Positions 10,073-55,671 of a DNA stretch of 64,000 nucleotides are shown here, piece by piece (within the stretch, counting starts at the first letter, position 1; the number at the start of each line of letters is the position of its first letter). The notes beneath the pieces are model-generated. The model searched no databases. It was not told the DNA's origin and saw only the letters and a program-made list of their open reading frames with translations. The position numbers were made by a program, and so were the translations under genes. The DNA comes from Chloroflexota bacterium (lineage in GTDB: Bacteria > Chloroflexota > Dehalococcoidia > GIF9 > UBA5629). The stretch is taken from assembly GCA_016865895.1 (NCBI GenBank), contig VGNY01000001.1, forward strand, positions 1,533 to 65,532, in the 5' to 3' direction.

Positions 10073-10104
10073 AGCTGAATTGAGCAAGGATTCAGCTCTT
10101 TTTG
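10073..10104 (+). terminator. possible rho-independent terminator (8-bp stem agctgaat/attcagct followed by a T-run)
   Basis: Hairpin at 10073-10097 is followed by CTTTTTG. It overlaps the stop codon of the convergent minus-strand gene. The stem is AT-rich. Confidence 0.35.
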
Positions 10105-10859
10105 CTGGTTGGCGGAAACGGCCCGAACTGAACCCAATATAGAAGCTCCAGCATCCGCAGTTCTGTCATTTCAGTTTGGAGATGCTTCGATAATTCCCGT
10201 AGCGCCTGCAATCTCGGAAAATACTTTCGGCCAAATATTCGAAGTCTGTCCATACAGGTTACGATTCTATCGGCCTTGCTACCAAAGTCGACCCTTAGCG
10301 CCTCCAGGAGTACGCTGTCGCAGATCGGGATGAGTTTTGGCCGTTTCCGATGCAACGCCTTGGTCAACCTGGCAACACCAATGCCAGAATGTCTTAACAA
10401 CTTGGCAAGAACATCATGAACGACTCCTTTACGACTTTGCCATTCTAGGTCATTCATGCCGAACAAATCCCAGTCGCCAATTTGAGCAATAGACTCACCA
10501 ACAATTGGTGCCCATGTCTCGGCCGACATTCTGGCTGCTATCTGGTTCGCTATCCGCCTATCTTCATCGCTTATCTTATCTGGTTCAGACGGTACCACAC
10601 AATCGTATTTTGGGAATCTATTGAATCGCTTTAGGTAATAGATAAGGTCTTTTTCGGAGCGTTCCCAGTGGATTTCTTTTGCCTCGGATTTGATAAGAAC
10701 AGCATTGGCAACAGGCTTTCCTCTAATTTGTATTGAACCTAGTCTTTTACGCCTCAGTTTTTCAGCGCACTTCCGACAATGAACGATCTTTCGTCGCGCA
10801 TGAGCTTCAAACTTCTCACCACAGATTTCGCAAGTTAAGATGAGTAGTTGTTTGGCCAT
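10092..10859 (-). CDS. hypothetical protein: N-terminal CxxC-x14-CxxC zinc ribbon plus DUF6308-like/HhH-like C-terminal domain
   Basis: Zinc ribbon CEICGEKFEAHARRKIVHCRKC. GIGVARLTKALHRKRPKLIPICDSVL resembles the conserved KLL.RKRP.L.P..DS motif I recall for DUF6308 and OGG-fold-like families. Start moved to the MAKQLL ATG at 10859. Confidence 0.6.
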   Translation of the reverse strand: MAKQLLILTCEICGEKFEAHARRKIVHCRKCAEKLRRKRLGSIQIRGKPVANAVLIKSEAKEIHWERSEKDLIYYLKRFNRFPKYDCVVPSEPDKISDEDRRIANQIAARMSAETWAPIVGESIAQIGDWDLFGMNDLEWQSRKGVVHDVLAKLLRHSGIGVARLTKALHRKRPKLIPICDSVLLEALRVDFGSKADRIVTCMDRLRIFGRKYFPRLQALRELSKHLQTEMTELRMLELLYWVQFGPFPPTSKKS

Positions 10860-11028
10860 ATATGTCTCTCTGAATATTAGCATGGTCTATTATACCAATG
10901 CTATGAAAAAATTCTAGGTAGTACCGAATTGCACACAACTCGGGATTGTTTAGTATCCCCACTTACATTCCGCTGATTGAATCACTCCAAAATCCGCATC
11001 TTTTATCATGAAAATCGGCTAGAACCTC

Positions 11029-11057
11029 TTGACAAAGACAATCTTTAGGCTTATAAT
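11029..11057 (+). promoter_or_regulatory. consensus sigma70-type promoter TTGACA-17 nt-TATAAT
   Basis: TTGACA at 11029-11034, a 17-nt spacer, then TATAAT at 11052-11057. It lies ~38 nt upstream of the GGAGG SD (11083-11087) and the TTG start at 11095. Confidence 0.6.
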
Positions 11058-11094
11058 GTTACTGGCATATGCCACCATCAATTGGAGGTAATAT

Positions 11095-11889
11095 TTGACA
11101 CAAAGAGCTATGCAAATAAAAGGGGGTGATCTCTTAGTCAGGATTGCTGAAGTAGCAACCGTTCTAGGACAAGAAGGCCGGGAATTTAACAGGCACCTTG
11201 TCGGACAGTTTGAGGAGTGGAACAGGGTGAATGTCAAAGAGTTGATAGATGCCGCTACCATATCCAATGAGCATCTAATTTTCTATGAGGCGGTGGCACA
11301 GACACTTGGCTGGCTTCAACAAATACCAGTATTGAGGGAAGGCAGCATAAATGACCTGAAGGAAAGACTGTTGCACGTGCCAGTGATCTACCTGCAGGTA
11401 CTTTTGGAGGCTAGGGGTGGACTGGTCGAGGAGGCAGGTCAGCGGCTAATAGAACTGCTGGACCAAAGCAAGAAGGAAACCGAGGTGAAAAGACCTAGGA
11501 GACTTTTGGCTGTGATAGCTGGTCTGGAAACCTGGTCGAGGGTTCAATTGCCAGATGTGGGCCCCAGAGGAGTGCTGGACTTGGAAGAAGTACAGCGCCT
11601 AGCCTTAAGTGCCTGTGGGCGCGCTCGTTGGACAGCATTGGCACCACTGAAAATGTATGCCATCTATAAACTGTCCAAAAACGTGGTCCTACCAACCTTT
11701 AGAGGGTTATTTCCACCTATGGGCACCGCTGTTTCCAGGGGAATTGAGCGCATTTTTGGCTTCACCTTGGGAGAATCTGAGAACGACTATTCAATCTCAA
11801 GAGGGCTCCACTTGAGGCTGGCAGATTTGGCACAGATGACGATATGGGATATCAACTCCGGGTTCTACAGGCTGGGAGGCGGTTTCTGA
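11095..11889 (+). CDS. hypothetical protein (264 aa), first gene of the uncharacterised island operon
   Basis: TTG start 7 nt after GGAGG. Long ORF with normal composition. No family recognised. The C-terminal LFPPMGTAVSRGIERIFGF is only vaguely HhH-like. Confidence 0.55.
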   Translation: MTQRAMQIKGGDLLVRIAEVATVLGQEGREFNRHLVGQFEEWNRVNVKELIDAATISNEHLIFYEAVAQTLGWLQQIPVLREGSINDLKERLLHVPVIYLQVLLEARGGLVEEAGQRLIELLDQSKKETEVKRPRRLLAVIAGLETWSRVQLPDVGPRGVLDLEEVQRLALSACGRARWTALAPLKMYAIYKLSKNVVLPTFRGLFPPMGTAVSRGIERIFGFTLGESENDYSISRGLHLRLADLAQMTIWDINSGFYRLGGGF

Positions 11890-11942
11890 GAAAAAACTGC
11901 TCACATGATGAGCATCATAATGGCAATGAGAGGGTGATAATA

Positions 11943-12611
11943 ATGGTAAAAACCCAAATTCGGCATGGCATCGGCGATATAACAATCTCATACCCCAAAT
12001 TCCCTTTTGACGAGACATTCAATGGCGATGGTGGTGGCGGGGAAATTTGCTTTATCTGTGGCAAGACTATGGGTGAAGGAGAGTTATTCACCTGTGCATC
12101 CAGGCTGCTACAGACATGCGAAGGCGATAAAGTGAAACCCAAAGTAATTGAAGCTGTGGCATCGTTACAGGTATGTCTGCCGTGTACTCTGTTGTCTGCT
12201 TACGATAAGCTGCAGTGGGCACATAAACCAAAACTCACCAAGGTTGAACTGTATAGCTTCTACGCATATGCCAGCCTGTTAGCCAAGTCTATAACGTGGT
12301 TGAAGTCTGACAGCAGAGTACAAAAGGAGTTTATGGAACACCTCATTGAAGAAACCGATTATCTACCTGTTGAATTGGATAGAGCTGATCTCCTTGGGGG
12401 CATCTATGACAGTGTCCCAGCTGTAATCACTGATGGGCAGTGCTTGAGATGCAGCTCCGCCGTCAACCCCAGCAATCCTCATATAGAGTTTAAGATAGCG
12501 ATAGACATACCGGGGCACAAGGGAATGAGCTCGTCCAATATCTGGAGATTAGGCGAATACTGTGACCAGTGCTCAAACCAGCTGCTGCCACTGTGCAGCC
12601 GGTTATGGTGA
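11943..12611 (+). CDS. hypothetical double zinc-knuckle protein (two CxxC...CxxC pairs)
   Basis: Cys pairs CFIC...CLPC and CLRC...CDQC. The ATG at 11943 is preceded by GAGAGGGTGA. The ORF-track start at 11844 would overlap the previous gene by 46 nt. Confidence 0.55.
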   Translation: MVKTQIRHGIGDITISYPKFPFDETFNGDGGGGEICFICGKTMGEGELFTCASRLLQTCEGDKVKPKVIEAVASLQVCLPCTLLSAYDKLQWAHKPKLTKVELYSFYAYASLLAKSITWLKSDSRVQKEFMEHLIEETDYLPVELDRADLLGGIYDSVPAVITDGQCLRCSSAVNPSNPHIEFKIAIDIPGHKGMSSSNIWRLGEYCDQCSNQLLPLCSRLW

Positions 12612-12635
12612 AGATTCTCTTTAAAATATAGGAGT

Positions 12636-13016
12636 ATGTGCTGTTGTGAAGATAATCCTTCGTACAAAGGGAAAGGAGCAGAAAGGGCTATGGAGGTCAT
12701 AGGAGGAATTATCGTTCTTTTTCTGTTTAGCCTCCCTCTACTGGCAATATTTCTGCTATTACTATGTGTGTCTCTGAGATTACTTGCATGGCTATGTGAT
12801 GGCCTAGCCTGGTTGTGTGAGGGTCTAGGCAAAATATGTGAGGTGTTATTTGAAAGGAAAGGATCAACAATAACTCCCTATGCTTCCACCTGGGAACCTG
12901 ATGGAGGAGGTATAACTTGTAGCGCGGCTGCTACTGCACAAGAACTAAGCATGCCATCTGTTATGGGTGCAGTCGAACAATATATTTGTGGAACAAGAGA
13001 CACTAGTAAGGAATGA
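12636..13016 (+). CDS. small Cys-rich membrane protein (hypothetical)
   Basis: Hydrophobic segment VIGGIIVLFLFSLPLLAIFLLLLCVSL is followed by the repeated LAWLCDGLAWLCEGLGKIC. The real start may be the ATG at 12690, which has better SD spacing. Confidence 0.4.
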   Translation: MCCCEDNPSYKGKGAERAMEVIGGIIVLFLFSLPLLAIFLLLLCVSLRLLAWLCDGLAWLCEGLGKICEVLFERKGSTITPYASTWEPDGGGITCSAAATAQELSMPSVMGAVEQYICGTRDTSKE

Positions 13017-13022
13017 GATAAG

Positions 13023-13604
13023 GTGACAATGGATCTTACCCCCGGCGCATTTGCTGAACAAGTTCTTAAATGGTACCGAATCTGGGCGAATGCAAATCGC
13101 AATTATTTCCCGGTTGAGGAAAAACTATCAGACAAAGCTTCTCGTGTGGGTTATCTAAATATGGTTGACCTCATAGAAATAACAAGGGTGCTTGGTAATC
13201 CACATAACATAAGAGGTAGAGTTCAGACAGCAAACACTGAAGCAACCGTAATACGAGCCACTAAGAATGCAATTTTGCATCTAAATGAACCGATAGAGGC
13301 TTACAAAAGCATGTGTGAGATAAGACAATGGGGCTTGGCATATAGAACCAAGACCTTGCGTTGCATCTGTCCGCGAAATTATGCGGCACTTGATAGCAAA
13401 ATTCACGTATGCATAGACAGGCGCTACTTCCCATCGAGAGACGAGGGTAAGCGATATTGTGAGTTTCTTAACTTCATTGAGCATATAAAACAGAAAGTGT
13501 TAGTGCCTGGACCTCGGAATGGAGAATGGTTTATCGCTGACATAGAAATGGCACTATTCCAATTTGCTTGGGAGCCGAATAATAGGATTATATGGCCGGA
13601 ATGA
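13023..13604 (+). CDS. hypothetical protein, possibly OGG-fold/HhH-like (distantly related to the 10092-10859 product)
   Basis: WGLAYRTKTLRCICPRNYAALDSKIHVCID parallels the G.A..TK.L....P.....DS motif of the divergent gene. Start is GTG 13023 or ATG 13029. Confidence 0.5.
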   Translation: MTMDLTPGAFAEQVLKWYRIWANANRNYFPVEEKLSDKASRVGYLNMVDLIEITRVLGNPHNIRGRVQTANTEATVIRATKNAILHLNEPIEAYKSMCEIRQWGLAYRTKTLRCICPRNYAALDSKIHVCIDRRYFPSRDEGKRYCEFLNFIEHIKQKVLVPGPRNGEWFIADIEMALFQFAWEPNNRIIWPE

Positions 13605-13790
13605 GTTCTACAATATCCCAGCCTCTTTAGCAATTGTACTTAAACTCATTTTTTACCTGTCACACTTTGGCATTTGTTACTCTAATCCTTAGCTGGCAAC
13701 TTATTCAGCCTACACTAAATACTCTGCCATCACTGTGACTGTCAATTGTGTACTTCGAGACCATTTAGTAATTCCTACCCGTCATTGCGA

Positions 13791-13855
13791 GCAAAGCGTG
13801 GCAATCTCAAGGGGATTGCTTTGTCACTCCGTTCCTCGCAATGACAGTCTGAGTG
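13791..13855. repeat. MITE-like element, family A variant (termini GTCATTGCGAG ... CTCGCAATGAC), 65 bp
   Basis: Perfect 11-bp terminal inverted repeats. The internal cgtggcaatctc is shared with 6148-6159. The same termini are seen at 29063/29279 and 30422/30507. Confidence 0.7.
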
Positions 13856-13915: not shown

Positions 13916-13944
13916 TTGACAAATAGAAAAAAGTGTGCTAGGTT
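13916..13944 (+). promoter_or_regulatory. candidate promoter of the kamA operon (TTGACA-17 nt-TGcTAGGTT extended -10)
   Basis: TTGACA at 13916-13921. TAGGTT at 13939-13944 is preceded by TGc. It lies ~50 nt upstream of the GTG start. Confidence 0.35.
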
Positions 13945-13995
13945 GTTAATGAAAAGTATTTCATACTTAATATTTCATTAAAGGAGAAACAATAA

Positions 13996-15366
13996 GTGAC
14001 AAAAGTGGCAACTGCCCTAAGGAGTCAAGTCGAAGAAGAGGAACCTCCAGGCCTTATCACCACGAGAAATGAAATGATAGTGGAGGAAGAAGAACCTCCA
14101 GGTAGGACGGCCGTTACCGATGGTACGGCCGTTATAAATGAGAATAGCTTCCCCACTCAAATCCAGCAGGAAAATTGGAGCGATTGGAAATGGCAATTTC
14201 GTAACCGAATCACCACTGTTGAAAAACTGGCGACTCTAATCCCCCTTTCAGCTAAAGAAAAAACTCAGCTTAAACTAGTAACCGCAAAATATCCTCTTTC
14301 AGTAACACCTTACTACCTCTCCCTAATCAACGTATACGACCCTCATGACCCTATCAGAAAACAGGCAATACCGGCTTTTGAAGAGATAACTCTTGGCCAC
14401 GTAGGTCTTGAAGACCCACTTGGAGAAAAAAGAGACTCTGTTGTCCCCGGACTGGTCCATCGCTACCCTGACAGAGTACTGATGGTGCTCACAGACATCT
14501 GCCCCATGCTTTGTCGCCACTGCACACGGAAAAGGGAGTGGCATAATGGCGGTTGGGTACACACTCCAGGTGAAATCAAAGCGATGTTGGACTACATCCA
14601 CAAGCACAAGACCATCAGAGACATTATCCTATCCGGCGGCGACCCGCTGACCCTTTCCACACGACGATTGGAAGACGTTATCTCCAAACTGAGGCAAATA
14701 GACCATGTTGAGATAATACGCATTGGCACCAGGTTCCCTGTGGTACTGCCGCAGCGCATAGACGATGAACTATGCACTATGCTCTCGAAATACGGGCCAA
14801 TATGGCTTAATACTCAATTCAACCACCATCACGAGATAACGCCAGAGTCAGCAGCGGCTTGCAACCGCCTCCTACGAGCTGGCATCCCGGTGAGCAATCA
14901 GTCGGTGCTTCTTCGGGACATAAACGACACCACAGAAAAACAGACAAAGCTATGCCACGGGCTTCTCAAGATAAAAGTACGCCCCTACTACCTTTTCCAG
15001 TGTGACGAAGTTCAAGGAACTGAGCACCTGCGCACTTCAGTAGAAACAGGCCTAAAAATAATAGAGGGGATGCGCGGCCATACCTCAGGCCTAGCTATAC
15101 CTACCTTTGTTATAGACCTACCAGAAGGCGGTGGCAAAGTTCCTCTCCAGCCGAACTATGTGTTAACACAAACAGAAGAAGAACTGGTACTGAGAAACTA
15201 CCAGGGGCGCTTCGTATGGTACCGGAACCCTAAAGATAAAGCCAGCCCTGAACTAACTACTGCAGCAGAATTAGATAATCCATTTGTCGACAGTTTTAAT
15301 GAAGCACAGCGCCAGCTCCAACCAGTGAGAGTCAGAAATGAGAATAGGGCTCGTATACGACCTTAA
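13996..15366 (+). CDS. kamA: lysine 2,3-aminomutase (KamA family radical SAM/PLP enzyme) with a repeat-containing N-terminal extension
   Basis: Cluster motif CPMLCRHCTRK. PLP-lysine motif PEGGGKVPL. The segment NWSDWKWQFRNRITTVEKL...PYYLSLI...PGLVHRYPDRVL is collinear with clostridial KamA as I recall it. Both lysine epsilon-amino-binding Asp residues are retained (QCD and VID-LPEGGGK). AAGGAG SD precedes the GTG start. Confidence 0.85.
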   Translation: MTKVATALRSQVEEEEPPGLITTRNEMIVEEEEPPGRTAVTDGTAVINENSFPTQIQQENWSDWKWQFRNRITTVEKLATLIPLSAKEKTQLKLVTAKYPLSVTPYYLSLINVYDPHDPIRKQAIPAFEEITLGHVGLEDPLGEKRDSVVPGLVHRYPDRVLMVLTDICPMLCRHCTRKREWHNGGWVHTPGEIKAMLDYIHKHKTIRDIILSGGDPLTLSTRRLEDVISKLRQIDHVEIIRIGTRFPVVLPQRIDDELCTMLSKYGPIWLNTQFNHHHEITPESAAACNRLLRAGIPVSNQSVLLRDINDTTEKQTKLCHGLLKIKVRPYYLFQCDEVQGTEHLRTSVETGLKIIEGMRGHTSGLAIPTFVIDLPEGGGKVPLQPNYVLTQTEEELVLRNYQGRFVWYRNPKDKASPELTTAAELDNPFVDSFNEAQRQLQPVRVRNENRARIRP

Positions 15367-16345
15367 AGAAGCCGTGCTCTCTGGGGCATACCTGCCAGAG
15401 GATGCCCTTGAGGAATATGATTCGCCTGAGACGATAGAGGCTATTGCCACAGCACTTCAGGCCGAGGGACACTCAGTGGTCAAACTAGGAAGCGGCAGGG
15501 AGTTCATAACTAACATCATCCATAATAACGTTGACTTTGTGTTCAACATCTCCGAAGGACGGGGCAACTATAGGAGCAGAGAGGCACAGGTGCCTTCTAT
15601 CCTGGAAATGCTCGGCATACCCTATTCTGGTTCAGACCCTCAGTGTCTGGCGATATGCTTGGACAAACCACTGACCAAGATATTAGTAGCAAGTGCTGGA
15701 ATTCGCACCCCAAAATGGCAGGTAATCACTAATGTCAGCCAGCTAAATCAAATAATCTGGGATGATTTCCCATTTCCCGCCTTCATCAAGCCAGCCTATG
15801 AAGGCTCAAGCAAAGGCATTCGCCTTGGCTCCCGAACAGAAACCGCGGCACAGACATGCCAAATAGCAGCGGAACTCCTGGAGCGCTACCAGCAACCGGT
15901 GATGATAGAGGAGTTCATCGCCGGCGATGAAATAACGGTTGGTGTCCTCGGCAACTCCCCAGCGACAATTCTAGGCATAATGCGTGTTCTGCCCAAGAAA
16001 AAGAGCGACTATTTCATTTATTCCCTCGAAGTGAAGAGAGAGTGGGTGCAATTGGTGGAGTATGAATGTCCCGCCGAATTGGGAAAGGACATTTTACAGG
16101 AAATTACAAACTCGAGTCTCAAGATGTTTGAAACTTTGGGCTGTCGTGATTTTGCCCGAATTGACTTCAAACTCAGCCCTGAGGGATTACCTTACTTCCT
16201 TGAGATAAATCCACTAGCCGGGCTCAATCCAACGAGCAGTGACTTGCTACTAATGGCCTATAAACTTGGCTGGACATACCAAGCTCTTATTTCAGCTATA
16301 CTCAATGCCGCTCTACAAAGGTACCCACAGTGCGTCCGCGGATAG
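15338..16345 (+). CDS. ATP-grasp ligase, D-alanine--D-alanine ligase family (substrate unknown)
   Basis: 335 aa. Ddl-like layout: N-terminal MRIGLVYDLK, central ATP-grasp FPAFIKPAYEGSSKGI, and C-terminal RIDF...YFLEINPLAGL. Overlaps the kamA 3' end by 29 nt. Confidence 0.75.
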   Translation: MRIGLVYDLKEAVLSGAYLPEDALEEYDSPETIEAIATALQAEGHSVVKLGSGREFITNIIHNNVDFVFNISEGRGNYRSREAQVPSILEMLGIPYSGSDPQCLAICLDKPLTKILVASAGIRTPKWQVITNVSQLNQIIWDDFPFPAFIKPAYEGSSKGIRLGSRTETAAQTCQIAAELLERYQQPVMIEEFIAGDEITVGVLGNSPATILGIMRVLPKKKSDYFIYSLEVKREWVQLVEYECPAELGKDILQEITNSSLKMFETLGCRDFARIDFKLSPEGLPYFLEINPLAGLNPTSSDLLLMAYKLGWTYQALISAILNAALQRYPQCVRG

Positions 16346-17328
16346 CGATTATCTATAATGAGCCTAACCCTGACCTCTATGGCACCATAGTAGAAAAGAA
16401 AGCATCGCTTGCTATCCTCACAGGGATGGAGGCAATCCATCAAGCTCTAACCGATTCAGGATATCCTGTCATTCGCATACCTTTAATACCACCACTCGAG
16501 TCAGCTAGAGAAAGGCTCAAAAACATTGAAGCAGACCTGGTGTTCAGCCTCTTCGAAGGTTTTGATGGTCAGCCGGAAGCTGAGGCAGCTATAGTAAATT
16601 CCCTTTCAAAGCTCGGGCTAACCTACACTGGTTGTCCCGGAACTGCCCTGTCTCTGGCACTGGATAAAGTGAGGACAAAGACACGCCTGGATGCAATAGA
16701 CGTAGACACACCCGATTACCAGCTATTAAGCCCCGAGACCGTTTCCATGTTTCACATGAGTTACCCTTGTATCGTCAAACCGTACGCAGAGGACGGAAGC
16801 AATGGTATAACAGAGGAAAGCGTGGTGTACGACTTCACCTCGTTACAAAATCAAGTGAGGACAATAAGTGAGCGCTTCAGAGGAAGAGCACTGGTGGAGG
16901 AATTTGTGGATGGCCGCGAATTCAATATTACAGTCCTTGGAGACAAGAAGCCTACACCTCTGCCTATCTCCGAGATAGTCTACTCCCTGCCACCGGAGAT
17001 GCCAAAGATTCTCACCTTCTCTGCTAAATGGGAACCACAAAGTGTATATTTCGAGAATACCAAAGCTGTCTGTCCCGCTGAGATAAGCGCTGAACTGCAA
17101 GAGCGCATCATAAAGACCGCCGTTTCCGCCTTTAGGCTGCTGGGGCGCCATGGCTATGCCAGAGTAGATTTTCGATTGGATAGCGAAGGCAAACTTAAGA
17201 TAATAGACCTGAACCCCAATCCTGACATATCCCCCGACTCCGGAGCAGCACTTCAAGCCAGCGCTAAGGGAATGAACTACAACCAGTTTATTGAAAAAAT
17301 CGTGCTGCTCGCCCTTGAAAAGGAATAG
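16330..17328 (+). CDS. second ATP-grasp ligase, Ddl family paralogue (substrate unknown)
   Basis: 332 aa. Motifs YPCIVKPYAEDGSNGI and ARVDFRLDSEGKLKIIDLNPNPD. GTG start overlaps the previous gene by 16 nt. Confidence 0.75.
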   Translation: MRPRIAIIYNEPNPDLYGTIVEKKASLAILTGMEAIHQALTDSGYPVIRIPLIPPLESARERLKNIEADLVFSLFEGFDGQPEAEAAIVNSLSKLGLTYTGCPGTALSLALDKVRTKTRLDAIDVDTPDYQLLSPETVSMFHMSYPCIVKPYAEDGSNGITEESVVYDFTSLQNQVRTISERFRGRALVEEFVDGREFNITVLGDKKPTPLPISEIVYSLPPEMPKILTFSAKWEPQSVYFENTKAVCPAEISAELQERIIKTAVSAFRLLGRHGYARVDFRLDSEGKLKIIDLNPNPDISPDSGAALQASAKGMNYNQFIEKIVLLALEKE

Positions 17329-17330
17329 GG

Positions 17331-17810
17331 ATGGGACCCACCATCAGGCCAATGACTAGCGAGGACAAACCAGCTATAATGCGGATGCTACGCAAAATAC
17401 CAGAATTCAAACCAATCGAAGTAGATATAGCTGAGGAAGTTCTCGAAGACTATCTGCAAAAACCAAATCATGGTGGTTACCACGTTTTCGTGGCAGAAGC
17501 TGGCTCGTCAATCAGAGGCTATATTTGCTACGGGACTACTCCCCTGACCGAGGGAACCTGGGACATATACTGGCTAGCAGTTGCTCCCAGTGAACAGAGA
17601 CGGGGCGTAGGAAAAGCCCTGCTCGCATTCGCCGAGGATAAAATCAAGAATACTAAGGGAAGGTTAGCCCTCATTGAAACGTCCTCCAAGCCGGAATATG
17701 AGAGAACAAGGCGTTTCTACCGCTCCCAAGGCTACACATTAGCCTGCCGAATCGCCGACTTCTACGCGCCAGGTGATGATAAGCTGGTTTTCCAGAAGCG
17801 GCTCGGGTAG
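17331..17810 (+). CDS. GNAT-family N-acetyltransferase
   Basis: 159 aa. Acetyl-CoA binding motif LAVAPSEQRRGVGKALL. Starts 3 nt after the preceding stop. Confidence 0.8.
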   Translation: MGPTIRPMTSEDKPAIMRMLRKIPEFKPIEVDIAEEVLEDYLQKPNHGGYHVFVAEAGSSIRGYICYGTTPLTEGTWDIYWLAVAPSEQRRGVGKALLAFAEDKIKNTKGRLALIETSSKPEYERTRRFYRSQGYTLACRIADFYAPGDDKLVFQKRLG

Positions 17811-17852
17811 GGTATACTTTAAAGCAGCATCAACAATAAAATAAAAGAGGGT

Positions 17853-18132
17853 GAGGCGAAGCTAAAGCCTCGCACTACATTTTCCTCTCCCTTATGGGAG
17901 AGGAGCAAGGTGAGGGTGAATACTGTCGAAGCCCCCCTGACCCCCCAGCAAGGGATGGAGAATCCTTTGGTAAGTCCACCAATGTAGTGCGACCCCTTTC
18001 CACGACCTGGCCCATGGGGTGACCAAGTCGGGACAGGAGGGTCACCCACGACCACCCCACATAGCTGCGACCTTTTAAGGTCGCTGAGCGGTGGAGAGCT
18101 GTGAGCGACGCTAAAGTCTCACAGCTACAGTG
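17853..18132. repeat. repeat-dense intergenic block (nested family C and family D elements)
   Basis: Contains gaggc..gcctcgcactacatt (family D half) and cctctcccttatgggagagg + caaggtgagggtgaa (family C, also at 26560-26619). Also contains aatgtagtgcgaccc and gcgaccttttaaggtcgc ... cagctacag (family D variants). Confidence 0.65.
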
Positions 18133-54639: not shown

Positions 54640-55671
54640 ATGAGAGTCGGCCTGATTTACGACCCGGTCTATCTTGAGCACGATACCGGGACTCACGTCG
54701 AAAACGCCCAGAGACTGGTAACCACTATGTCCCACCTTGAGGAAAACCAGCAACAGGACAAATTCATCTTATTATCTCCACGCGAAGCAACAGTTGACGA
54801 ATTGTCAGCAGTGCATGCCCCAGAATACATTTCCCACATCCAAAGGCAGGCGGAAAGAGGCGGCGGCTGGCTTGACACTGATACAGTAATGTCACCAGGT
54901 TCCTACAAAGCAGCTATCTATGCTGCCGGTGGTGCTCTGACCGCAGTTGACGCGGTAATGAACAGGCAAGTTAACAGCGCCTTTGCCTTGGTTAGACCAC
55001 CAGGACATCATGCTACATGCTGGCAAGCCATGGGTTTTTGTCTGTTTAACAACATAGCCATAGCTGCCAAGTACGCCCTGGCCAACTTCGATATCAAGCG
55101 AATACTTATCGTAGATTTCGATGTCCACCACGGAAATGGTACGCAAGACACTTTCTATGCCGACCCAAATGTCCTCTACTTCTCCGTCCATGAATACCCT
55201 TTCTACCCCGGAACCGGAAGCATTGATGAGACCGGAGCCAGAGGCGGTGAAGGATTTACCGTCAATGTGCCACTTCTAGCCGGCTGGGGAGATGACGAAT
55301 ACCAGGCAGTCTTCGAAGACATCCTGGCACCAATAGCTAAACGCTTCGAACCACAGCTTATTCTGGTCTCCGCTGGCTACGATGCTCACTGGGCCGATAG
55401 CCTGGCTCTAATGCAGGTAAGCGTCTCTGGCTTCGCCCGCTTGGTAGAAATCATAAAGACTCTGGCTGATATGTTATGTCAAGGACGTATGGTCTTCACT
55501 CTGGAAGGCGGCTATAACCTCGAGGCATTGTCCCTGTCGGTGGGCGCCACCCTTGATATCCTTCGGGGAAGCCGTGAAATCGTTGACCCTCTGGGCAAAC
55601 GAGAAGCAAAATCAAAGCCGGTTCACTTCGACAACTTCGTCCGGATGGTTAAGGAGATGCACAATATATAA
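54640..55671 (+). CDS. histone deacetylase-family (acetoin utilisation/acetylpolyamine amidohydrolase-like) protein
   Basis: Motifs RPPGHHA, DFDVHHGNGTQ and LEGGY. Confidence 0.85.
   Translation: MRVGLIYDPVYLEHDTGTHVENAQRLVTTMSHLEENQQQDKFILLSPREATVDELSAVHAPEYISHIQRQAERGGGWLDTDTVMSPGSYKAAIYAAGGALTAVDAVMNRQVNSAFALVRPPGHHATCWQAMGFCLFNNIAIAAKYALANFDIKRILIVDFDVHHGNGTQDTFYADPNVLYFSVHEYPFYPGTGSIDETGARGGEGFTVNVPLLAGWGDDEYQAVFEDILAPIAKRFEPQLILVSAGYDAHWADSLALMQVSVSGFARLVEIIKTLADMLCQGRMVFTLEGGYNLEALSLSVGATLDILRGSREIVDPLGKREAKSKPVHFDNFVRMVKEMHNI

Follow-up and report, generated by a model that had tools for sequence, protein, structure and literature searches.

To our knowledge, only four biological uses of beta-lysine are known: as a precursor of osmolytes, a building block of antibiotics, an intermediate in fermentation and a modifier of elongation factor P (EF-P). 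Small N-acetylated dipeptides can be assembled by an acetyltransferase of the GNAT family together with an ATP-grasp ligase, typical examples being the bacterial route to NAGGN (Ngg/AsnO) and the animal route to N-acetyl-aspartyl-glutamate (NAT8L with RIMKLA/B). Both an aminomutase and an acetyltransferase participate in the AblA/AblB pathway to N-epsilon-acetyl-beta-lysine, which occurs in methanogens and some bacteria (Pflueger et al. 2003, cited in PMC3543383). The present analysis concerns a stretch of 64,000 nucleotides, hereafter called the window, from a Chloroflexota bacterium of the class Dehalococcoidia (assembly GCA_016865895.1, contig VGNY01000001.1, positions 1,533 to 65,532 of the forward strand), in which a KamA-type lysine 2,3-aminomutase gene is followed by genes for two paralogous ATP-grasp ligases with the Ddl fold (AG1 and AG2) and for a GNAT N-acetyltransferase. 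This four-gene cassette, organized as one translationally coupled operon, probably makes a small, often N-acetylated, beta-lysine-containing (pseudo)peptide (estimated probability about 0.6); a beta-lysine-containing product is considered most likely because the cassette is found in hundreds of species across many phyla.

The four genes, as given by the list of open reading frames (ORFs), are as follows.

13996-15366, forward strand: kamA, 456 aa, GTG start, with AAGGAG 9 nt upstream
15338-16345, forward strand: AG1, Ddl-fold ATP-grasp ligase, 335 aa, ATG start
16330-17328, forward strand: AG2, paralogous Ddl-fold ATP-grasp ligase, 332 aa, GTG start
17331-17810, forward strand: GNAT N-acetyltransferase, 159 aa, ATG start

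Read directly in the sequence, the junctions consist of a 29-nt overlap between kamA and AG1, a 16-nt overlap between AG1 and AG2 and a 2-nt gap between AG2 and the GNAT gene; an original prediction, made from the letters of the window before any database search, had given coordinates, overlaps and gap that match the ORF list and the junction reading exactly. Pfam assigns Radical_SAM and LAM_C to KamA, Dala_Dala_lig_C to both AG1 (1e-35) and AG2 (4e-28), and Acetyltransf_1/7/10 to GNAT. AG1 and AG2 align with 28% identity (E 3e-34), as expected of the two paralogous Ddl-family genes that had been proposed. By sequence, the four genes are translationally coupled and co-inherited, and their functional coupling is strongly backed by the cross-phylum synteny and the KamA-AG1, AG1-AG2 and AG2-GNAT fusion proteins described below. 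The window itself matches freshwater metagenome contigs of the Joint Genome Institute, and its nearest named relatives are Chloroflexota/Dehalococcoidia metagenome-assembled genomes (MAGs).

A genome scan with an AG1 profile, covering one genome per species, revealed AG1 relatives in at least 592 species genomes, mostly of anaerobic bacteria, where they are nearly always located beside a lysine-type KamA gene; loci were examined for the best 80 of these relatives. These 80 loci belong to Dehalococcoidia (including Dehalogenimonas), Gemmataceae, Isosphaera and other Planctomycetota, Syntrophales, Thermodesulfobacteriota, Myxococcales, Acidobacteria, Margulisiibacteriota, Krumholzibacteriia and Omnitrophota, and AG1 relatives are also carried by Desulfovibrionales. 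KamA-AG1-AG2(-GNAT) is colinear in most of the best 80 loci, across at least eight phyla and within unrelated flanking genes. The complete KamA-AG1-AG2-GNAT order is present at virtually all Dehalococcoidia loci and at several deltaproteobacterial and acidobacterial ones, while Planctomycetota loci contain KamA-AG1-AG2 without GNAT. Three deltaproteobacterial MAGs (L074, L079 and L085) show a further arrangement, with AG1 followed by a histidine kinase and a sigma-54 response regulator and then by KamA-AG2. Among cultured carriers, Desulfovibrio mangrovi and Oleidesulfovibrio alaskensis G20-like contigs hold all four genes behind a sigma-54 activator. Since the flanking genes differ between loci, the cassette moves as a unit, and cross-phylum identities of 60%, observed for a Syntrophales AG1 compared with the window AG1 and for a 579-aa deacetylase fusion (see below) compared between Dehalococcoidales and Desulfovibrio, point to its spread by horizontal transfer. 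A search for plasmid-borne copies returned only rhizobial ATP-grasp genes, with at most 34% identity and in other contexts.

Gene fusions complement this picture. A census based on representatives at 50% identity contained three KamA-AG1 fusions and 15 AG1-AG2 fusions, the latter in the same order as the window genes, and four AG2-GNAT fusions were obtained from the AG2 search; every adjacent gene pair is therefore fused somewhere. The survey of the four-gene cassette argues against chance juxtaposition, given a shared order and coupling in dozens of loci of several phyla with unrelated flanks, and the cassette, which had been considered unusual when first noticed, proves to be widespread across phyla rather than peculiar to the window genome. 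A third architecture was also encountered (P0123-P0143; 18 representative clusters, 560-720 aa), composed of two tandem AG1-like ATP-grasp domains, the N-terminal one weakly scoring.

The first enzyme of the cassette is strongly inferred, from its residues, to be a lysine-type KamA that converts L-lysine to beta-lysine. The window protein aligns to the lysine 2,3-aminomutase (LAM) of C. subterminale (PDB 2A5H) with an E-value of 4e-128 and retains the radical-SAM motif CxxxCxxC (C169/C173/C176, corresponding to C125/C129/C132 of 2A5H), the carboxylate-binding arginine (R178, Arg134) and the lysine that binds pyridoxal phosphate (PLP; K381, Lys337). Both aspartates that bind the epsilon-ammonium group of lysine are also kept, namely D337 (Asp293, in 'QCD') and D374 (Asp330, in 'VIDLPEGGGK'); these two positions are reportedly replaced in glutamate 2,3-aminomutase, according to Ruzicka and Frey. 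All 56 of the cassette-linked KamA homologues compared conserve the two aspartates, and all 56 conserve CxxxCxxC. The proposal that KamA keeps the radical-SAM motif, the PLP lysine and both aspartates, and hence should make beta-lysine and not beta-glutamate, is confirmed at the level of these residues. On curated NCBIfam models, the window protein scores 333.6 bits on the KamA subfamily model TIGR00238, above its cut-off of 199.2, and 486.8 bits on the AblA equivalog TIGR03820, just under the cut-off of 525.4, with 442.8 on the glutamate type (below 650), 414.8 on the arginine type (below 600) and 237.1 on EpmB (below 369.3). Among these models it is nearer to AblA/LAM than to the glutamate, arginine or EpmB types.

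Both middle genes are labelled 'D-alanine-D-alanine ligase' in databases, and the question whether they are canonical cell-wall Ddl enzymes can be answered in the negative, given their sub-cut-off scores, the loss of the D-Ala specificity triad and their linkage to KamA. On NCBIfam NF002378 (cut-off 243), the best scores are 175.8 bits for AG1 and 145.3 bits for AG2, and both proteins fall under every Ddl/Van cut-off. Residues were compared by aligning 66 AG1-type and 53 AG2-type sequences to E. coli DdlB, the DdlB reference being checked against 1IOV/2DLN. The ATP/Mg and acyl-phosphate residues K97, K144, E180, E187, K215, R255, D257, E270 and N272 (DdlB numbering) are kept in both families, and AG1 and AG2 should therefore be active, catalytically complete ligases. 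The specificity triad E15-S150-Y216, by contrast with the retained catalytic set, is lost in both. AG1 carries Y216->R234 (65 of 66 sequences), E68->R81 and H63->E73, each invariant in 65-66 of the 66 sequences; AG2 carries E15->A/S, S150->A/G, Y216->W234 (53 of 53) and G276->D299 (51 of 53). AlphaFold2 models were obtained with pLDDT 83 for AG1 and 79 for AG2, the latter with low confidence in the omega-loop residues 217-250, and Foldseek retrieved Ddl/VanA structures as the top matches of both (TM about 0.7-0.8, 20-25% identity; for AG1, TM 0.78-0.83 and 23%), with no structure in the PDB nearer than Ddl. No murein genes were found in Dehalococcoidia-type cassette contexts. Conservation is high, with 67-87% identity of AG1 across 120 clusters from Chloroflexota. 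AG1 is assigned as a carboxylate-amine ligase of the Ddl fold that does not join D-Ala to D-Ala. The partners of the two ligases can be suggested more weakly: the two invariant arginines gained in the AG1 pocket hint at an acidic partner, while the loss of the glutamate that binds the donor alpha-ammonium group, together with the gain of an invariant Asp and Trp, hints that AG2 may handle a cationic or N-blocked partner, such as a beta-lysine moiety. As a separate observation, a sister metagenome contig otherwise identical to the window (L001, 8825-9893) has AG2 broken into two ORFs with residues 75-97 duplicated; the explanation is either natural variation within the population, with AG2 disrupted, or a faulty assembly.

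The acetyltransferase, recognizable by the acetyl-CoA motif QRRGVGKAL, is of a family other than AblB, as judged from its score of 10.9 bits (E 0.23) on the AblB model TIGR03827, whose cut-off is 205.1. Its nearest solved structure is 2R7H (E 4e-34), deposited by structural genomics for a protein of Oleidesulfovibrio alaskensis G20; ABB39838.1 belongs to the cluster of that protein. The original prediction had pictured an ablA-ablB pair with two ligase genes inserted; this description has to be abandoned, because the GNAT protein fails TIGR03827 and is dispensable in Planctomycetota, where only KamA-AG1-AG2 is found.

Related loci contain several accessory genes that bear on the nature of the product. 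A 579-aa fusion of GNAT and acetylpolyamine amidohydrolase (APAH)-like deacetylase is encoded directly 3' of the GNAT gene in 10 Dehalococcoidales loci and in Desulfovibrio mangrovi; its C-terminal domain is nearest to acetylpolyamine amidohydrolase (6PHR/3Q9B, E 7e-71), and its N-terminal part is weakly GNAT-like. An MFS transporter gene is located upstream of the cassette in 8-10 loci, a MarC-family membrane protein gene downstream in 6-8 loci and a divergent MarR-type helix-turn-helix gene in 12-15 loci, and in Desulfovibrio a sigma-54 activator gene and a TGGCAT-N5-TTGCT element precede kamA. The positions of the fusion gene and of this element are the following.

About 9.5-11.3 kb in L018, L021, L024, L026, L027, L030, L031, L037 and L043: GNAT~APAH-like fusion gene
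8629-10386 in L090: GNAT~APAH-like fusion gene
4457-4472 in L090 and 4488-4503 in L091: sigma-54 type -24/-12 element between the sigma-54 activator gene and kamA

The element of L091 sits inside a called ORF, which is therefore probably too long at its 5' end. Taken together, such neighbours are what one would expect for a small amine or solute under regulation, subject to acetylation and deacetylation and perhaps also to export. None of the APAH-like, MFS, MarC or MarR-type genes is present in the window. The window does carry a stand-alone HDAC6-like (class IIb type) deacetylase gene at 54640-55671 (Pfam Hist_deacetyl, E 1e-99); it was considered as the missing deacetylase and set aside, being of the HDAC6 and not the APAH type, unrelated to the APAH-like gene of other loci and 37 kb distant from the cassette.

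A plausible pathway can be proposed from these observations. KamA would convert L-lysine to beta-lysine (3,6-diaminohexanoate) with S-adenosylmethionine, a [4Fe-4S] cluster and PLP. AG1 and AG2 would then each proceed through an acyl-phosphate to form one amide bond, giving a beta-lysine-containing di- or tripeptide-like molecule, or might alternatively act together as a heterodimer. GNAT would acetylate a free amine, probably the epsilon-amine on the aminobutyl side chain of the beta-lysine part, a position suggested by the APAH-type partner in related loci; since GNAT is missing in Planctomycetota, acetylation would be an accessory step. In related genomes, the APAH-like deacetylase, the MFS and MarC proteins and the MarR-type or sigma-54 two-component control may add turnover and export, in the pattern of a regulated small metabolite that resembles a polyamine or a solute. 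Candidate roles for the product include a stress solute, a polyamine surrogate and an exported compound.

Several points weigh against this proposal. The counts were made over loci without phylogenetic independence, and errors of gene calling could account for some of the 'fusions' seen in metagenomes. For the guesses at substrates, the basis is sequence alignment to DdlB, whose N-terminal part (the E15 region) is the least reliable (model pLDDT 56-66 for residues 11-30). The two ligases could form one heterodimeric enzyme that performs a single ligation, and ATP-grasp enzymes can also modify proteins or build polymers. The habitats (freshwater lake, groundwater, sediments, digesters and soil) are not notably saline and offer no clear clue to an osmolyte.

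If the ligases acted on a protein or carrier, beta-lysine might be placed on EF-P, with ATP-grasp enzymes as the alternative to EpmA, or on the acidic, Glu-rich tail of KamA itself in a LysW-like manner. KamA paralogues do supply beta-lysine for EF-P in gamma-proteobacteria (EpmA/EpmB), RimK and LysX are ATP-grasp enzymes that modify proteins, and the N-terminal extension of KamA contains acidic E-P-P-G boxes, which are of the type that needs EF-P for translation and are Glu-rich like the LysW or S6 acceptor tails. Such a reading is nevertheless improbable: AG1 and AG2 fall within the Ddl clade, where small molecules are the substrates of the known members, the KamA protein stays well below the EpmB cut-off (237.1 vs 369.3) and is much nearer to AblA/LAM, and a tblastn search of 92 loci and the window, which extended to these loci and not to whole genomes, found no efp. 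Moreover, the patchy distribution suggestive of horizontal transfer, the transporters and the APAH-like deacetylase are a better fit to a metabolite than to protein modification.

A nitrogen-rich polymer of the cyanophycin-like or poly(beta-lysine) type, with one ligase for the backbone and the other for the side chains, would agree with the sigma-54 control in delta-proteobacteria, which suggests nitrogen or stress regulation, and with residue alignments in which AG1 seems acid-binding and AG2 amine-binding; cyanophycin synthetase likewise has two ligase activities, its backbone-building domain also being an ATP-grasp. It is an improbable candidate all the same, as both ligases are of minimal Ddl size (332-335 aa) and lack any additional domain for binding a primer or polymer, the cassette has no linked cyanophycinase-like gene, and small amines are the more usual setting for GNAT, an acetylpolyamine-type deacetylase and MFS exporters. 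A further alternative, a plain AblA/AblB-type N-epsilon-acetyl-beta-lysine osmolyte operon that happens to adjoin cell-wall ddl genes, accounts for an aminomutase and an acetyltransferase in one operon and for the database labels of the middle genes. It is contradicted by the AblB score of GNAT (10.9 bits vs 205.1), by ligases that lie below the Ddl cut-offs and have lost the D-Ala specificity residues, and by a ligase-KamA linkage that persists across phyla and in fusions even where GNAT is missing, and it was rejected as highly improbable. A small beta-lysine-containing pseudopeptide remains the favoured product of the cassette.

The region upstream of AG1, comprising the intergenic DNA before kamA and the beginning of kamA itself, contains a further set of conserved features.

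13916..13944, forward strand: putative promoter, with -35 TTGACA (13916-13921) and extended -10 TGc-TAGGTT (13936-13944)
13949..13978, forward strand: putative operator, a perfect palindrome ATGAAA-N4-TTTCAT (13949-13964) plus a third TTTCAT half-site (13973-13978)
13981..13998, forward strand: Shine-Dalgarno sequence AAGGAG (13981-13986) and kamA GTG start codon (13996-13998)
13996..14160, forward strand: cassette-specific N-terminal extension of KamA, about 55 aa
14032-14052 and 14083-14103, forward strand: EEEEPPG boxes GAR-GAR-GAR-GAA-CCT-CCA-GGY, kamA codons 13-19 and 30-36
14108-14131: hairpin in the coding region of the kamA leader, CGGCCGUUACC...GGUACGGCCG

The promoter block is invariant or nearly so in the window and four related loci (L007, L009, L010 and L011), and the flanking upstream DNA does not align; the putative promoter was missed by a consensus scan because its -10 hexamer matches at only 3 of 6 positions. 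Located between the promoter and the ribosome-binding site, the palindrome and its half-site are invariant in all five aligned Dehalococcoidia loci and probably represent an operator for a repressor. The start codon occupies the same aligned position throughout, as GTG in three and ATG in two of the five loci, which supports the GTG at 13996 as the true start. The near relatives of the window also share the Shine-Dalgarno sequence, both boxes and the hairpin, whose arms are invariant in them and in whose loop L010 has a 6-nt (two-codon) insertion exactly; this hairpin is clade-specific and is not found in more distant homologues.

Cassette-linked KamA proteins have N-terminal extensions of 40-60 residues, compared with 11 aa in 2A5H. 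The sequence of the extension is highly variable apart from one or two boxes of the form [D/E][D/E]-E-P-P-[G/S], and the core motif E-P-P-[G/S] is present in 46 of the 56 linked KamA proteins, 27 of which have two copies, while composition-preserving shuffles averaged 1.5, with 6 as the highest value. The boxes recur across phyla (in loci L007-L089, L090 and L091), including Desulfovibrio and one KamA-AG1 fusion. Constraint is also apparent at synonymous sites: the first box proline is encoded by CCT in 62 of 73 cases and never by CCG, whereas CCT and CCG account for 20% and 39% of proline codons in the remainder of these genes. No such constraint applies to the third base of the second proline codon, and the next codon is GGY or AGY. 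The resulting conserved word, GAR-GAR-CCU-CCN-RGU, contains the anti-Shine-Dalgarno pentamer CCUCC.

The synonymous-site constraint on the boxes suggests translational control, with the kamA leader serving as a translated regulatory element, and expression of the operon would then probably also be tuned, while this leader is being translated, via the Glu-Pro-Pro-Gly/Ser boxes. Conserved RNA structure, or the arms of an anti-Shine-Dalgarno switch, was considered and dropped for the boxes (z = -1.1 for the window leader relative to shuffles). No RNA element was detected in the window by Rfam at gathering thresholds, RNAalifold of 17 diverse kamA leaders yielded no consensus structure (-0.25 kcal/mol), and the predicted pairing partners of CCUCC are different at each locus. 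The most attractive interpretation is a putative programmed pause at Pro-Pro, dependent on EF-P, by which the yield of the coupled operon would be determined. A short pairing between the Shine-Dalgarno sequence and CCUCC is a possible substitute for such a pause since both sides are invariant, and a protein-docking motif is another possible one. If the pause and the proposed pathway were combined, the cassette would define a new class of polyamine-like beta-lysine pseudopeptides, widespread in anaerobic and planctomycete lineages, whose synthesis is autoregulated through an EF-P-dependent leader pause that responds to the cationic product; this combined scenario is an unlikely one, and read-through of the boxes that responds to a cationic product, in a bacterial parallel to the eukaryotic PPW polyamine sensor, is a purely hypothetical analogy.

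The surroundings of the cassette in the window include some additional elements. Five ORFs occupy 10092-13604, just upstream, and comprise one DUF6308 gene on the reverse strand and four ORFs on the forward strand that neither Pfam nor PADLOC recognizes; related cassette loci lack the whole block. A 14-nt inverted repeat (GTCATTGCGAGCAA / TTCCTCGCAATGAC, arms 37 nt apart) lies in the intergenic region at 13781-13845, upstream of the promoter; it is not common to related loci and may be a small repeat element. Two alike imperfect hairpins, at 17851-17885 (containing GAGGCGAAGCTAAAGCCTC) and 18095-18130 (containing GAGCGACGCTAAAGTCTC), are found in the 350-nt gap past the GNAT gene and could act as a terminator or constitute a small repeated palindromic element. 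The anti-phage defence models of PADLOC matched none of the four cassette proteins and five neighbouring proteins, and the idea of a defence island was dropped on this basis.

The enzymes of the cassette are of known kinds, and it is their combination and product that appear undescribed. Searches of open-access papers and bioRxiv returned no description of a KamA-ATP-grasp-GNAT pathway, in line with the earlier statement that none was known, and 'aminomutase' occurred together with 'ATP-grasp' only in unrelated papers; as most subscription papers fall outside this literature, the result is suggestive rather than conclusive. If the proposed pathway is correct, it would represent a fifth use of beta-lysine and a new metabolite family, conserved across phyla and retained by Dehalococcoidia despite their very small genomes, and would add two new ATP-grasp specificities for amides of beta-amino acids. 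Hundreds of annotations would be corrected, including the idea of a Ddl in the wall-less Dehalococcoidia. The codon-constrained Pro-Pro boxes at the start of kamA may represent a regulator of translation of a kind new for bacteria. The cassette is readily accessible to experiment, since it is present in the cultured and genetically tractable O. alaskensis G20, and for the GNAT of this organism a crystal structure without assigned function (2R7H) is available.

Comparison with known systems places the cassette among several partial counterparts. In the acetylation cycle of polyamines by APAH and SpeG, as in the related loci, an acetyltransferase and an APAH-like deacetylase (7e-71 to 6PHR/3Q9B) are paired, and by analogy GNAT and the APAH-like protein would acetylate and deacetylate an aminoalkyl chain; the window differs in having no APAH-like gene, and the protein of the related loci in its additional GNAT-like domain at the N-terminus. 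An analogy that concerns the leader boxes alone is with the eukaryotic AZIN1 uCC 'PPW' polyamine sensor, a conserved Pro-Pro-X in a translated leader whose output depends on a step assisted by eIF5A/EF-P, whereas the boxes of the cassette lie within the enzyme's own N-terminus. EpmB and EpmA likewise link a KamA-family enzyme that forms beta-lysine to an ATP-dependent ligation, but their ligase is a paralogue of lysyl-tRNA synthetase (LysRS), and the cassette KamA fails the EpmB model and has no linked efp. DdlB and VanA share with AG1 and AG2 the fold (TM about 0.8) and the full set of ATP/Mg and acyl-phosphate catalytic residues; the cassette ligases differ from them in their 20-25% identity, replaced specificity residues, scores far below the cut-offs, linkage to KamA and lack of a peptidoglycan gene context. 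The routes to NAGGN and N-acetyl-aspartyl-glutamate resemble the cassette in combining an acetyltransferase with an ATP-grasp ligase to produce a small N-acetylated peptide solute or signal, although they involve neither an aminomutase nor a beta-amino acid and their ATP-grasp enzymes are RimK-type, not Ddl-type. The AblA/AblB pathway (Pflueger et al. 2003, cited in PMC3543383) is similar in that the genes for a KamA-type aminomutase and a GNAT share a transcript, with beta-lysine as the committed intermediate. The cassette differs from it in a GNAT of another family that is dispensable in Planctomycetota, in a KamA that has a motif-bearing N-terminal extension and scores under the AblA equivalog cut-off, and in being more than a two-gene unit, with two obligatory ATP-grasp ligases whose genes are always located between or beside those for the aminomutase and the acetyltransferase.

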